NCBI GenBank assembly: GCA_024690605.1
Contig: JAILOV010000063.1
Coordinates: 15,790-79,789 of the forward strand
Direction of reading: 5' to 3'
Length of the DNA stretch: 64,000 bases
Origin: Lachnospiraceae bacterium
GTDB taxonomy: Bacteria; Bacillota; Clostridia; Lachnospirales; Lachnospiraceae
This document shows positions 51,423 to 57,498 of the stretch, in pieces; positions within the stretch are counted from its first letter, which is position 1; each line of letters opens with the position of its first letter. The notes under the pieces were generated by a model. That model searched no databases, had not been told where the DNA came from, and was given only the letters and a program-made list of their open reading frames with translations. The position numbers were made by a program, and so were the translations under genes.

Positions 51423-52325
51423 TCAGCACGCCTTTTTCCGGCTCTTTCCCGCTGTCAGTTCGGTGTAGAATTCATAAGCCTCTTTGTCGGTATAACCCTC
51501 GTGCACCACCTTGCGCACGGCCTGTGCCATCTCCACGGGATGTGTCGACTGGAAGATGTTCCTGCCCATGTCGACGCCGGCGGCGCCGCCCTGAATGACG
51601 CGCCAGGCGAGCGTCAGTGCCTCCTTCTCCGGCAGTTTCTTGCCGCCCGCAATGACAAGCGGCACCGGACACGCGGCGACAACCTCTTCAAAATTGTCGC
51701 AGTAATAGGTCTTGACAATCTGGCATCCCATCTCGGCCAGGATCCTCGTGGCCAGTTTGAAGAAGCGGTCCGTCCGCTCCATTTCCTTGCCGACGGCCAC
51801 GACGCCGAGGGTCGGGATACTGTACCGGATCCCGGCGTTGATCACCTGAGAGAGATTCTCCAGGCTCGAGAGCTGTCCGTCCGCGCCGATAAAGGTCTGC
51901 ACCGCCATGCAGTCGGCATTCATGCGGATCGCGTCCTCAATGTTCACCGCGACGGTCTCATGGGAGAGATCGTCATTGAGCATGGAGGAACCGGAGGTCA
52001 CCCGGAGCGCCACCCCGCAGGAGGTGCTCGCCGGGACGCAGGTCCTGAGCGCTCCTCTGGTCGCCATCAGCACGTCAACATAGGGCATCAGCGGCGGGAT
52101 CACCAGATCCAGACGCTCCAGCCCCGAAGTGGAGCCCATGAAATAGCCGTGATCAAAAGCGAACATGACGGTCTTCCCGGTCTTCGGATCGAAGATGCGG
52201 GACAGATGCTTCTTCATGCCCCAGTCCAGACCGTTCGCACCCTTCACATGGAAATCCCCCATGTTGGCAAACGCTTCCTTTACATGATAGTCCTTGGCAA
52301 CCTTGAGACCGTCCCTGTCAGCCAT
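51423..52325 (-). CDS. lsrF: 3-hydroxy-5-phosphonooxypentane-2,4-dione thiolase LsrF (class I aldolase fold)
   Basis: LDWGMKKHLSRIFDPKTGKTVMFAFDHGYFMG, IVKTYY (catalytic Lys), IAGGKK, GVDMGRNIFQ, closely matching enteric LsrF. Confidence 0.9.
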   Translation of the reverse strand: MADRDGLKVAKDYHVKEAFANMGDFHVKGANGLDWGMKKHLSRIFDPKTGKTVMFAFDHGYFMGSTSGLERLDLVIPPLMPYVDVLMATRGALRTCVPASTSCGVALRVTSGSSMLNDDLSHETVAVNIEDAIRMNADCMAVQTFIGADGQLSSLENLSQVINAGIRYSIPTLGVVAVGKEMERTDRFFKLATRILAEMGCQIVKTYYCDNFEEVVAACPVPLVIAGGKKLPEKEALTLAWRVIQGGAAGVDMGRNIFQSTHPVEMAQAVRKVVHEGYTDKEAYEFYTELTAGKSRKKAC

Positions 52326-52396
52326 CGTCCTCCTCCTTTGCAATGTTGCTTTTTACGCACAACGCGGGTATCATTATAACACACAGGAGGTGCGTT

Positions 52397-53974
52397 TTGA
52401 ATAAGGATTATTTACTTGCCATCGACGCGGGCACCGGAAGCGTCCGCGCCGTTCTTTTCGACCGGAAAGGCACGCAGATCGGCGTCGCCCAGAGAGAATG
52501 GGAGCATCTGTCCGATCCCCGTTTCCCCGGCAGCATGAATTTTGACTGGACCACCAACTGGCCGCTCGCCTGCACCTGCATCCGTCAGGTCGTGCGGGAA
52601 GCGGGCATCTCCCCGGAGGCGATCGCCGCCGTGTCCACCACCTGCATGCGGGAGGGGATTCTGCTCTATGACCGGGACGGCAGGGAGATCTGGGGCTGTG
52701 CCAACGTGGATTCCCGCAGCACTGACGAGGTGGCACAGCTGGTCAGGACGCAGCCCGATCTGGAAAAGAAGCTCTACGCGATCTCCGGCGAGGCCTTTGC
52801 GCTGGGTGCGCTCCCCAGACTTCTCTGGGTGAAGAACAAGATGCCGGAGATCTATGAAAAGACCGCCCGCATCGGCATGTTCAATGACTGGCTGATCTAC
52901 CGGCTCACGGGCATCCTGTCCGTCGAACCGAGCAATGGCTCCACGACGGGGCTTTTCGATCTGAAAAAGCGCACCTGGGATCCCGCTGTCGCGGAAAGCG
53001 TCGGCCTGCGGACGGACATCTTCCCGCCCGTCAGCGAATGCGGCCGGAAAGCCGCGGAGATCAACGAACAGGGCGCAGCGGACACCGGGCTCGCGGTCGG
53101 AACGCCGGTCATCGTCGGCGGCGGAGATTCCCAGCTGGGCTGCGTCGGCGTGGGGGTCGTGAAACCGAATCAGGCGGCGATCTTCGGCGGCAGCTTCTGG
53201 CAGTATGAATACAACACGGACAGCGGCGATACGGATCCCGACTGCCGCGTCCGTGTCAACTGTCATGCGGTCCCGGGTGTCTGGCAATATGAAGCTCTGG
53301 CCTTCAATCCCGGTCTCGTCATGCGATGGTTCCGTGACGGCTTCTGCCAGCATGAAGCCGCGATCGCCGCACAGACCGGTGAGGACATCTACGATCTGAT
53401 GAACCGCGAAGCGGAAAAGATCCCCGCCGGCTCGAACGGCATGATGTGCACCTTTTCCGACGTGATGAACTTCACCTGCTGGAAGCACGCGTCACCGACC
53501 TTCACCAATTTCAGCATCGACCCGAAGCTGCACAACCGCTACACCTTTTACCGGGCCATCCTGGAAAACGCGGCGCTGGTCACCAGAGGCCACGTGGATC
53601 TCGTGCGGGAAGCGACCGGCAACATGCCGTCCGAAGTGGTCTTCGCCGGCGGTGCCTCCAAGAGCCCGCTGTGGTGTCAGATCCTCGCGGATGTACTGGG
53701 ACTTCCCGTCAGAGTGCCCGTTGTCAAAGAGGCGACCGCTCTCGGCGCGGCGATCATCGCGGGCGTCGGTGCGGGGATCTACCGGGACGCGCAGGACGGC
53801 GCGGAACAGTGCGTCCGCTGGGAGAAGACCTGCACGCCGGATCCCGCCGCTCATGCCGTCTACGAAGAGATGTATCCTGTCTGGCGCGAAATCTACGCCG
53901 CGCAGCTTGCGCTCTGCGACAGAGGACTCACACGGAACATGTGGATCGCACCGGGGCTGGCCCCGCTTTCATGA
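52397..53974 (+). CDS. lsrK: Autoinducer-2 (DPD) kinase LsrK, FGGY family
   Basis: TTG start after GGAGG; YLLAIDAGTGSVRAV...EWEH...PGSMNFD, STTCMREG, WGCANVDSR, EPSNGSTTG; divergent from lsrF. Confidence 0.85.
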   Translation: MNKDYLLAIDAGTGSVRAVLFDRKGTQIGVAQREWEHLSDPRFPGSMNFDWTTNWPLACTCIRQVVREAGISPEAIAAVSTTCMREGILLYDRDGREIWGCANVDSRSTDEVAQLVRTQPDLEKKLYAISGEAFALGALPRLLWVKNKMPEIYEKTARIGMFNDWLIYRLTGILSVEPSNGSTTGLFDLKKRTWDPAVAESVGLRTDIFPPVSECGRKAAEINEQGAADTGLAVGTPVIVGGGDSQLGCVGVGVVKPNQAAIFGGSFWQYEYNTDSGDTDPDCRVRVNCHAVPGVWQYEALAFNPGLVMRWFRDGFCQHEAAIAAQTGEDIYDLMNREAEKIPAGSNGMMCTFSDVMNFTCWKHASPTFTNFSIDPKLHNRYTFYRAILENAALVTRGHVDLVREATGNMPSEVVFAGGASKSPLWCQILADVLGLPVRVPVVKEATALGAAIIAGVGAGIYRDAQDGAEQCVRWEKTCTPDPAAHAVYEEMYPVWREIYAAQLALCDRGLTRNMWIAPGLAPLS

Positions 53975-53986
53975 AAGGAGACTGCC

Positions 53987-54331
53987 ATGTTTGTCGTACA
54001 TGAAGATGATTTTTCCTATCGATTCGGGGACAGCGGTCCGAAATATCTGATGAAGGGGCCGCGCATGAATTTTGCGCTCGTGCAGTTCCAGCCCGGTCAG
54101 GACTTTCCGGCACATTATCACAATATCATGGAGGAGAATTTCTACATCCTGAGCGGTGAGATCGATATCTACGTGGACGGTAAGGTCAACCACCTGAAGG
54201 AAGGTCAGATGATCCACATCGAGCCCGGTGAAGTGCATTACTGCGTCAACAACTCCGACCGGCCGATCAAAATGGTGTCAACGCTGGCGCCTTATCAGGA
54301 ATCGGACAAGGTCGAGGTGCCGAATCCGTAA
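53987..54331 (+). CDS. Cupin-domain protein (114 aa) with intact metal site
   Basis: FPAHYHNIMEENFYILSG and GQMIHIEPGEVHYCVN; RBS AAGGAG directly after the lsrK stop. Confidence 0.85.
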   Translation: MFVVHEDDFSYRFGDSGPKYLMKGPRMNFALVQFQPGQDFPAHYHNIMEENFYILSGEIDIYVDGKVNHLKEGQMIHIEPGEVHYCVNNSDRPIKMVSTLAPYQESDKVEVPNP

Positions 54332-55715: not shown

Positions 55716-56549
55716 ATGCGTTTAGGAACTTCATCACCGCTGCAGCACGATTCTCCCGAACAATGGGCGGCGCGGCACAAAGCGCTCGGGTGTGCGGCGG
55801 TCGTGTTCCCGGTACAGAGCGATGAACCGGAGGAGAGGATCCTTGCCTACAAAGCGGCCGCGGACCGTGCCGGACTCACTGTCGCGGAGGTCGGGATCTG
55901 GAGAAACGCACTGTCGCGGGATCCCGATGAGAGAAAACGGAACATGGATTACTGTGTGGAGCAGCTGCGACTGGCGGACTTCCTCGGTGCCGGATGCTGT
56001 GTCAACGTGGCAGGTGCCTTCGGCCCGGTGTGGGACGGTCCGTACAGAGAAAACTTCACGGCGCAGGCCAGACAGGAGACCGTCCGTATGGTGCGGGAGA
56101 TCATCGACCGGGCAGATGTGAAGCACACCTTTTTCACGCTGGAACCGATGCCGTGGATGATCCCCACGGGACCGGAGGACTATGCCCGTCTTCTCGACGA
56201 AGTGGATCGCGACCGGTTTGCCGTGCATATGGATATCATCAACATGACGAGCTCCGTCGACCGCTATTTTCACGCTGAGGAACTGATCGACGCCTGCGCG
56301 GAGCTTCTGGGAAGCAGGATCAAAAGCTGTCATATCAAGGATGTGCATCTGAACGGTGCCTACACCGCGCAGCTGGTGGAATGCGCCCCGGGTTGCGGTG
56401 AATTCCCGATCCGGCACTATGTAGAAAAAATGCACGCCGTCGATCCGGATATGCCGATGATCCTGGAGCATCTGCGGACGGACGAAGAATATCTGAAGTA
56501 TATGGCTTATCTTAAGGAGGTTCTGCATGGACTATACAAGACAGTCTGA
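55716..56549 (+). CDS. Sugar phosphate isomerase/epimerase, xylose-isomerase-like TIM barrel
   Basis: LEPM, VHMDIIN, CHIKD, ILEH metal-ligand pattern; RBS AGGAGG. Confidence 0.8.
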   Translation: MRLGTSSPLQHDSPEQWAARHKALGCAAVVFPVQSDEPEERILAYKAAADRAGLTVAEVGIWRNALSRDPDERKRNMDYCVEQLRLADFLGAGCCVNVAGAFGPVWDGPYRENFTAQARQETVRMVREIIDRADVKHTFFTLEPMPWMIPTGPEDYARLLDEVDRDRFAVHMDIINMTSSVDRYFHAEELIDACAELLGSRIKSCHIKDVHLNGAYTAQLVECAPGCGEFPIRHYVEKMHAVDPDMPMILEHLRTDEEYLKYMAYLKEVLHGLYKTV

Positions 56550-57456
56550 CGCCAATGTCATCACGCAGCGGTACATGGATTCCATCCTGTTCGAGGCGAG
56601 ATATATCGACTCCGTCAGGGCGGAGCTGACTACGGATTTTCTGGGTGAGACCTTTGACCTGCCGGTCATGATGCCGGCGTTTTCCCATCTGGGCAATTAC
56701 GCGGGGAGAGAGCGGAACGGCCTGGAGGAATATGCACTCGCGGCCGCGGAATGCGGCGTTCTTAATTTCTGCGGCATGATGGAAAATGACCAGTTTGAGA
56801 AGATCGTGAAGACCGGTGCAAAGACGGTGCGGATCGTCAAGCCCTACGCGGATCAGGGCAAGGTGCGCGATCAGATGCAGTTCGCGGAAGCCGCCGGTGC
56901 CTTTGCCGTCGGGATGGACATTGATCACATCTTCGGGGAGAAAGGTTATGACGTGGTCGTCGGGGAGGATATGGCGGCGCAGACGTCGGAGATGCTGCGT
57001 TCCTATGTGGAGCTCACGAAACTGCCCTTTGTGGTCAAGGGTGTCCTGAGTGTCTCCGATGCCGTGAAATGCGCAGATATCGGCGCAAAAGCGATCATCG
57101 TCAGTCATCATCACGGGCGGCTTCCCTATGCCGTTCCGCCGATGATGGTCCTGCCGGAGATCAAAAAAGCTCTGGCCGGAAAAGAGGTCGGGATCATTGT
57201 CGACTGCGGGATCGCGACCGGCGCGGATGTGTTCAAGGCGATCGCTCTGGGAGCCGATGCGGCCGCGGTCGGACGCGCCATGCTGCCCTCACTGGAGCAG
57301 GAGGGAACGCCGGGGGTATCGGCTTTTATCCGGGGGATCGGCGACGAGCTCCGCTTCATCATGGGATCAACGGGATACCGCCGCGTTTCCGATATCGATG
57401 CTTCGGTCCTGCATTTCCCGAACGACGAAATGCCGATCCGAAAAGGCCTGTTGTAA
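56527..57456 (+). CDS. FMN-dependent alpha-hydroxy-acid dehydrogenase family protein (short form)
   Basis: LPFVVKGVLS, IVSHHHGR, IVDCGIATGADVFKAIALGADAAAVGR. Confidence 0.78.
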   Translation: MDYTRQSDANVITQRYMDSILFEARYIDSVRAELTTDFLGETFDLPVMMPAFSHLGNYAGRERNGLEEYALAAAECGVLNFCGMMENDQFEKIVKTGAKTVRIVKPYADQGKVRDQMQFAEAAGAFAVGMDIDHIFGEKGYDVVVGEDMAAQTSEMLRSYVELTKLPFVVKGVLSVSDAVKCADIGAKAIIVSHHHGRLPYAVPPMMVLPEIKKALAGKEVGIIVDCGIATGADVFKAIALGADAAAVGRAMLPSLEQEGTPGVSAFIRGIGDELRFIMGSTGYRRVSDIDASVLHFPNDEMPIRKGLL

Positions 57457-57498
57457 AAACCGGACATTTCCTCTATGATGGATTCCGGAGGTAACAGC

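Follow-up and report, generated by a model that had tools for sequence, protein, structure and literature searches.

No bacterial signal is shared more widely than autoinducer-2 (AI-2), and its removal by Lsr systems influences how gut communities signal. The degradation route currently accepted, through LsrK, LsrG and LsrF, comes from work on Escherichia coli and Salmonella, and the LsrG of E. coli converts P-DPD to P-HPD without a metal. The locus described here raises the question of how a Lachnospiraceae bacterium that encodes LsrK and LsrF would carry out the step assigned to LsrG, and of what part could be taken by a small cupin encoded directly after lsrK. The window, by which we mean the whole stretch of 64,000 nucleotides that was analysed, carries the following features:

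51423–52325, minus strand: lsrF, encoding 3-hydroxy-5-phosphonooxypentane-2,4-dione thiolase (NF006081, 415.5 bits against a cut-off of 297).
52326–52396, no strand assigned: 71-bp spacer between the divergent lsrF and lsrK, with both ribosome-binding sites and one promoter-like site.
52397–53974, plus strand: lsrK, encoding autoinducer-2 kinase (NF008187, 756.5 bits against a cut-off of 528).
53975–53986, plus strand: lsrK–cupin spacer, AAGGAGACTGCC, 12 bp with the Shine-Dalgarno sequence AAGGAG.
53987–54331, plus strand: lsrK-associated monocupin of 114 amino acids with an ATG start, recognized by a Cupin_2 match, invariant ligands and the lsrK upstream.

Likely start codons were assigned for lsrF and lsrK, each with a GGAGG-type site ahead of it. 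For lsrF, this is the ATG at 52325, read from the sequence, in an open frame that reaches a TTG at 52343; the product is 75% identical to the LsrF of Clostridium saccharobutylicum, and the N termini of the two proteins (MADRDGLK here, MADKEGYK in C. saccharobutylicum) align. Translation of lsrK probably starts from the TTG at 52397, 6 nt past AGGAGG, in a frame that is open back to an ATG at 52343; the NF008187 match starts at residue 21 of this ORF, and identity with the C. saccharobutylicum LsrK is 67%. An earlier note on this DNA, made from the letters alone, had placed the cupin 12 bp after lsrK, and this was borne out, with both genes on the same strand and the kinase assigned at equivalog level. 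Scanning of the lsrK–cupin junction gave no promoter-like or terminator-like site. In the divergent region, a minus-strand promoter-like site (TTCAAA-17-TATAAT with a TG extension, running from 52401 to 52373) was seen as a consensus match only. The gene downstream of the cupin, 9 bp off, is convergent and encodes an M14 peptidase.

Beyond it, 1.4 kb past the cupin, lies a co-directional cluster (55716–60164, plus strand) encoding a xylose-isomerase-like TIM barrel, an FMN-dependent alpha-hydroxy-acid dehydrogenase, an MBL-fold hydrolase, an AEC transporter and a ketopantoate-reductase-like protein. Nothing was found that ties this cluster to lsr, and its AEC transporter was rejected, on comparison, as an orthologue of the Mem_trans gene of other lsr loci described below.

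The identity of the cupin gene was established by a Pfam search of its 114-amino acid product, which matched Cupin_2 (PF07883) with an E value of 2.7e-19 and 69 bits against a cut-off of 27. Matches were to cupin families alone; the product belongs neither to LsrG (NF007791) nor to the ABM family (PF03992), and no acireductone dioxygenase (ARD) family was among the eight Pfam families matched at E ≤ 0.01. Both canonical cupin motifs are present, the first as G37-x5-H43-x-H45-x4-E50-x6-G57 (canonical G(X)5HXH(X)3-4E(X)6G) and the second as G73-x6-P80-G81-x2-H84-x3-N88 (canonical G(X)5-6PXG(X)2H(X)3N). The predicted metal ligands are H43, H45, E50 and H84, which confirmed the complete His-x-His...Glu...His site described in the earlier note; all four are invariant in an alignment of 23 family members reaching down to 32% identity, in which the 11 invariant columns are G17, Y20, G37, H43, H45, E50, G57, P80, H84, N88 and D107. 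R12 and K19 are nearly invariant and lie inside an N-terminal motif, YRFGDxGPKYL (YRFGDSGPKYL in the window), which is specific to the family and missing from solved cupins.

A chance ORF was ruled out by 1342 homologues in a large protein collection, from several phyla. The best 120 of these are 74–92% identical to the window cupin and come from Lachnospiraceae, Oscillospiraceae, Clostridium, Flexilinea and Planctomycetes. The family is small: clustering at 50% identity leaves 10 clusters when E < 1e-30 is required and 102 at E < 1e-10. The window protein is 48% identical to the Bacillus protein and 65% identical to one from a Lacticaseibacillus paracasei plasmid, in alignments that cover at least 95% of the length.

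For structural comparison, an AlphaFold2 model was used (pLDDT 97), which predicts a beta-barrel of ten strands with the jelly-roll (double-stranded beta-helix) fold of the cupins. Foldseek aligned this model to solved monocupins with TM scores of 0.82–0.84, and the nearest solved structures were an uncharacterised Klebsiella protein (3h8u), the archaeal monocupin phosphomannose isomerases of Thermococcus (PMIs; 7zvy and 7zvm), TM1459 and KdgF. A sequence search of solved structures found no member of the family, and the best match there was quercetin 2,3-dioxygenase. The Thermococcus PMIs share with the window cupin a length of about 110 amino acids, the same metal motifs and the fold (TM 0.82, 26–28% identity); they differ in genomic context, and only the barrel core, residues 31–112 of the window cupin, aligns. 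Cupin sugar-phosphate isomerases carry out an aldose-ketose-type carbonyl transposition through a metal-stabilised enediolate. KdgF (5fpz, 5fq0 and 7zyb) is likewise a monocupin of the same size (TM 0.77–0.79), which opens the ring of a small, unstable keto sugar, but it differs in identity (15–24%), in its uronate-catabolism context and in a substrate bearing a carboxylate rather than a phosphate. The window cupin is not assigned to KdgF, as the match is structural only and the context is lsr, not pectin or alginate.

The remainder of the Lsr system was then sought in the whole assembly (2.76 Mb, 57% GC, 95% complete). No match to NF007791 was found at E ≤ 1 anywhere in this 95% complete genome. 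The sole ABM-domain protein, on contig C79, was rejected as a hidden LsrG: its gene adjoins a TetR gene, has no lsr context, and the product does not match the LsrG model. In tblastn searches with eight proteins of the C. saccharobutylicum lsr locus, the matches were LsrF (75%), LsrK (67%) and the cupin (77%); LsrB and LsrR were not found with these queries, and only a distant sugar ABC transporter was seen elsewhere. The module of this organism is thus reduced to lsrF and, divergent from it, lsrK–cupin, without lsrACDB or lsrR. The same minimal layout is common to seven Lachnospiraceae loci (L018, L025, L032, L035, L038, L047 and L080). The genome also encodes PFOR and indolepyruvate:ferredoxin oxidoreductase. 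Outside the window, an ORF on contig C13 (77575–78153) carries the HTIEH and GCRTG motifs of a LuxS-like protein; it was retrieved by tblastn at E = 5e-12, with a B. subtilis LuxS sequence as the query. On this likeness, production of AI-2, besides its degradation, is probable in this organism.

To follow the cupin across species, one genome per species was scanned with a profile built from an 8-sequence alignment. At least 565 species genomes encode a relative of the cupin, and the best 80 loci were kept. Among loci with a near-full-length lsrK, 92 have the kinase gene as the immediate upstream neighbour of the cupin, on the same strand, at a distance of 11–445 bp (median 36 bp); in one further locus lsrK and the cupin are divergent, and another is cut by a contig end. 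These loci span Clostridia, Bacilli, Chloroflexi, Planctomycetes, Deinococcus and Enterobacterales, and each of the three deep lsrK clades sampled has the cupin next to lsrK. Across 28 loci, pairwise identities of the cupin track those of LsrK (r = 0.90), the pattern that a unit inherited together would give. The cupin has been inherited along with lsrK in at least six phyla, and it is beyond doubt a genuine part of AI-2 processing modules and under strong selection.

Gene order varies around this constant pair. The usual clostridial order is lsrF<lsrB<lsrD<lsrC<lsrA followed by the divergent lsrR>lsrK>cupin; in Bacilli it is lsrB<D<C<A followed by lsrR>lsrK>cupin>lsrF, so that lsrK and lsrF flank the cupin. 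In Deinococcus psychrotolerans the locus consists of MFS>lsrK>cupin alone, and no LsrF was found on the same 406-kb replicon. Once the cupin and the canonical lsr genes are set aside, no remaining ORF family is found in more than 21 of the 92 loci, and other conserved locus genes were rejected as alternative isomerases on this ground.

Several individual loci deserve a description of their own. A Mem_trans (AEC-type) membrane protein is encoded after the cupin in 21 loci (e.g. L005:7370–8380), and a 165-amino acid ureidoglycolate-lyase-like protein, also DUF4867-like, in 12 (e.g. L020:10397–10894); these two are the commonest of the additional families, and both are candidate accessory genes of clostridial lsr loci. 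The Lacticaseibacillus paracasei plasmid pMGB0747-1 (L087) carries a full cupin-containing lsr locus of the clostridial type, with rbsD after the cupin. This plasmid is conjugative and the locus lies between IS30 and IS5 elements; its presence there is direct evidence of horizontal movement of the module. On a single MAG contig, a 653-amino acid LsrK::cupin fusion with FGGY_N, FGGY_C and Cupin_2 domains is encoded directly after lsrR (L108:4015–5976), which could be an assembly error, a frameshift or a lost stop codon rather than a true fusion. In Clostridium magnum DSM 2767 (L023), fragments of lsrK, lsrB and lsrF stand beside an intact cupin, the lsrF frame having an internal TGA, and this locus appears to be decayed.

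The distribution of LsrG and LsrF was next compared with that of the cupin. LsrG reached the NF007791 cut-off in none of the 78 non-proteobacterial species genomes that carry the cupin, nor in a Bacillus chromosome record. The best matches in cupin-bearing genomes scored 67 and 59 bits against the cut-off of 135 and were rejected as LsrG, both being far below it and the 67-bit one adjoining an EamA transporter. A search blind to LsrG was considered, the named E. coli control having fallen under the cut-off, and was ruled out by a Salmonella record, which scored 192 bits as positive control. LsrF, at its curated cut-off, passes in 73 of the same 78 genomes; two more are truncated, and most of the others lie at contig ends. 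In a phylum sample of 401 genomes, LsrK exceeded its cut-off in four, each with the cupin directly after lsrK and none with LsrG within 20 kb of it. LsrK and LsrF are present and LsrG is absent in this genome, and a pathway hole of this kind, which the cupin would fill, exists in at least 75 genomes.

Of the records in a plasmid collection, 80 contain LsrK, 79 an LsrG homologue and 8 the cupin. In Rhizobiaceae and their relatives, the LsrG homologue is encoded directly after lsrK (in Ensifer, lsrR>lsrK>ABM), so that the slot after lsrK is taken by lsrG in Rhizobiaceae and by the cupin in other lineages. On Ensifer canadensis pT173c (L109:1915–3171), a 418-amino acid 'class II aldolase' is encoded after lsrB, in the usual position of lsrF, with the LsrG homologue following lsrK; the aldolase may represent a second case of non-orthologous replacement within the pathway.

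The earlier note had named mutual exclusivity of cupin and lsrG across lsrK loci as a check, and common co-occurrence of the two as grounds for refuting its idea. Exclusivity fails in its strict form: it holds for the 78 non-proteobacterial genomes, but in Enterobacterales there is co-occurrence of the refuting kind, a single locus holding both genes in Salmonella, Edwardsiella and Serratia and in 125 of the 5426 complete E. coli genomes. The order in Salmonella is lsrE<lsrG<lsrF<B<D<C<A followed by lsrR>lsrK>cupin, and the predicted catalytic residues are intact in the enterobacterial cupins that coexist with LsrG. In Klebsiella and in K-12-type loci, lsrG is present and the cupin absent. The Salmonella-type lsr locus of E. 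coli (L102–L105), which includes lsrE and lsrG besides the cupin, has IS elements, a group II intron reverse transcriptase and phage-like genes on its flanks and looks island-borne. Mean identities were compared between the two situations. In clades without LsrG, the cupin is more conserved than the kinase (79% versus 71% for LsrK; ratio 1.08–1.11), whereas in Enterobacterales with LsrG, represented by four taxa only, the relation is the opposite (76% versus 84%; ratio 0.91). This hints at relaxed constraint on the cupin where LsrG is present, in those four enterobacterial taxa.

The association of lsrK with a cupin is already published and is not new here (Quan and Bentley 2012; it also has a SEED name). 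These authors described a 'mannose-6-phosphate isomerase' gene that Salmonella, the B. cereus group and Spirochaeta smaragdinae have in common in their lsr systems, 'consistently adjacent to lsrK' and with a 'possible AI-2-P processing role' (PMC3420918). The Salmonella gene, STM4071, belongs to the LsrR regulon according to the account of Thijs 2010 given in the same paper, and in a fabR mutant of Salmonella it was induced together with all of the lsr genes (PMC4804515). Our literature search found no published reaction for the lsrK-associated cupin. STM4071 (WP_001173080) is homologous to the window cupin (46% identity over 95% of the length, E = 2e-26), and the two agree in length, in the YRFGDxGPKYL motif, in the H-x-H/E/H ligands and in their place right after lsrK. 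They differ in that the window cupin falls in a conserved clostridial-type subclade, the members of which are 75–92% identical to one another, and in that Salmonella has the transporter, the repressor and LsrG, all three of which the window module lacks. The window gene is an ordinary member of this known, uncharacterised family of lsr-associated cupins. As PMC2728841 summarises Taga 2003, lsr transcription is still raised, or de-repressed, in Salmonella lsrG mutants; on that summary, STM4071 at its native expression levels does not make up entirely for the loss of LsrG.

Taken together, the cupin is the best candidate, on comparative sequence evidence, for the missing phospho-AI-2 isomerase in many bacteria without LsrG. 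We infer its substrate, reaction and metal as follows. The cupin would be co-transcribed with lsrK, and LsrK would phosphorylate DPD to P-DPD, the 4-hydroxy-2,3-dione. P-DPD would bind a divalent metal coordinated by H43, H45, E50 and H84; a cis-enediolate would be stabilised by this metal, and the carbonyl would be transposed to give P-HPD, the 3-hydroxy-2,4-dione, which LsrF and CoA would cleave to DHAP and acetyl-CoA. The module of lsrF and lsrK–cupin would then be an intracellular unit for AI-2 catabolism or quenching, because neither LsrACDB nor LsrR is found in the genome. The place directly after lsrK and the known chemistry of cupin sugar-phosphate isomerases both fit this reading. Also in its favour are the higher conservation of the cupin than of LsrK where LsrG is lacking and the co-regulation of STM4071 with lsr in Salmonella, while the Deinococcus lsrK–cupin pair with no LsrF on its replicon tells against it. 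LsrG itself, a (4S)-4-hydroxy-5-phosphonooxypentane-2,3-dione isomerase of the ABM fold, would share with the cupin the reaction and the pathway position between LsrK and LsrF, and in Rhizobiaceae it shares the operon slot after lsrK; it differs in its unrelated fold, in having no sequence similarity to the cupin and in needing no metal. The cupin as a dedicated AI-2 (Lsr) enzyme, a metal-assisted P-DPD to P-HPD isomerase feeding LsrF, is held tentatively, with a probability that we place slightly short of even.

As for the replacement of LsrG proposed in the earlier note, one part was upheld and another was not. The absence of LsrG from all 78 genomes, the retention of LsrF in 73 of them, the standing of the cupin as the one conserved gene without an assigned role in lsr loci that have LsrK and LsrF but lack LsrG, its position between lsrK and lsrF in Bacilli, the shared slot in Rhizobiaceae and the PMI structural neighbours speak for it; coexistence with lsrG and the Salmonella lsrG phenotype speak against it, and for these last two reasons the cupin is not a clean one-for-one replacement. 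The coexistence in Enterobacterales also keeps alive two other readings, in which the cupin acts at a separate step or ahead of the kinase.

An additional step on phospho-AI-2 or an isomer of it, distinct from the LsrG reaction, appears unlikely; the four enterobacterial genera in which a cupin with an intact active site stands beside LsrG speak for it. Epimerisation or tautomer handling, control of the hydrate and keto forms, or detoxification of the reactive diketone would be examples, with isomerisation in bacteria without LsrG then proceeding spontaneously or by LsrF. Salmonella-type loci do hold a further unexplained gene, lsrE; the Deinococcus lsrK–cupin pair has no LsrF on its replicon; and the lsrG phenotype of Salmonella, as relayed in PMC2728841, is not masked by STM4071. 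Set against these points, a separate step leaves the isomerase position unfilled in at least 75 genomes that keep an equivalog-level LsrF, and it accounts neither for the sharing of the post-lsrK slot by lsrG and the cupin in different lineages nor for E. coli K-12 and Klebsiella, which have no cupin.

Action ahead of the kinase was considered in the form of a KdgF-like 'linearase', which would convert cyclic AI-2 (DHMF/THMF) to linear DPD and so feed LsrK. The linkage of the cupin is tighter to lsrK than to lsrF (92 loci, the one fusion, and the Deinococcus pair without lsrF), and this fits a step before the kinase equally well. KdgF monocupins, the substrates of which are unsaturated uronates that they linearise, rank high among the structural neighbours (TM 0.77–0.79); KdgF is structurally as close as the isomerases, and this counts against the isomerase reading. 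Such an activity would be compatible with LsrG in the same locus, and the rbsD gene after the cupin on the L. paracasei plasmid encodes a sugar ring-form enzyme. Against it, the forms of AI-2 pass into one another spontaneously, and the LsrK of E. coli is active with no helper of this kind. R12 and K19, near-invariant in the alignment, may point to an anionic and probably phosphorylated ligand, identity with KdgF is just 15–24%, and the isomerase hole in bacteria without LsrG stays unexplained, so that we regard a step before the kinase as distinctly improbable.

A non-catalytic role, whether as a ligand- or metal-binding accessory, as a regulator of LsrK or as a hitch-hiking gene, would be in keeping with the many monocupins that have no known function, but it is very unlikely given conservation that is extreme, and above that of LsrK in clades without LsrG, invariant metal ligands and co-inheritance with lsrK across at least six phyla. 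Finally, the new cleavage chemistry that the earlier note had offered as its second option, an O2-dependent, ARD/Dke1-like C–C cleavage of the P-DPD enediol or the P-HPD beta-diketone, draws on a 3-His-1-Glu site typical of cupin dioxygenases, on quercetin 2,3-dioxygenase as the top sequence match among solved structures and on the enol of P-DPD being an aci-reductone, but is scarcely credible in a family 75–90% conserved among strict gut and rumen anaerobes, with PFOR and indolepyruvate:ferredoxin oxidoreductase encoded in the window genome, ARD missing from the eight Pfam families matched at E ≤ 0.01, and LsrF, which it would make redundant, kept in 73 of 78 genomes.

If the isomerase reading is extended to the history of the pathway, the cupin rather than LsrG would be the ancestral and most widespread phospho-AI-2 isomerase, with LsrG a later proteobacterial recruit; we consider this possible and somewhat doubtful. 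In Rhizobiaceae, LsrG would have taken the post-lsrK slot; in E. coli K-12 and Klebsiella it would have ousted the cupin, and in Salmonella-type loci the two would stand side by side. The route of the textbooks, through LsrK, LsrG and LsrF, would then be a lineage-specific variant, and AI-2 catabolism in gut Clostridia and Bacilli would proceed through an uncharacterised enzyme.

In the Gram-positive, Chloroflexi and Planctomycete genomes with cupin-type lsr loci examined here, nearly all encode LsrK and LsrF, none encodes LsrG, and the cupin is present instead. Should the cupin do something other than isomerise P-DPD, it would represent an unrecognised step of the Lsr pathway, one operating in Salmonella too. 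Should it be the isomerase, the AI-2 pathway of Firmicutes would be complete, two unrelated folds in one operon slot would make a clean case of their kind, and the cupin would provide a marker gene for AI-2 catabolism in metagenomes.
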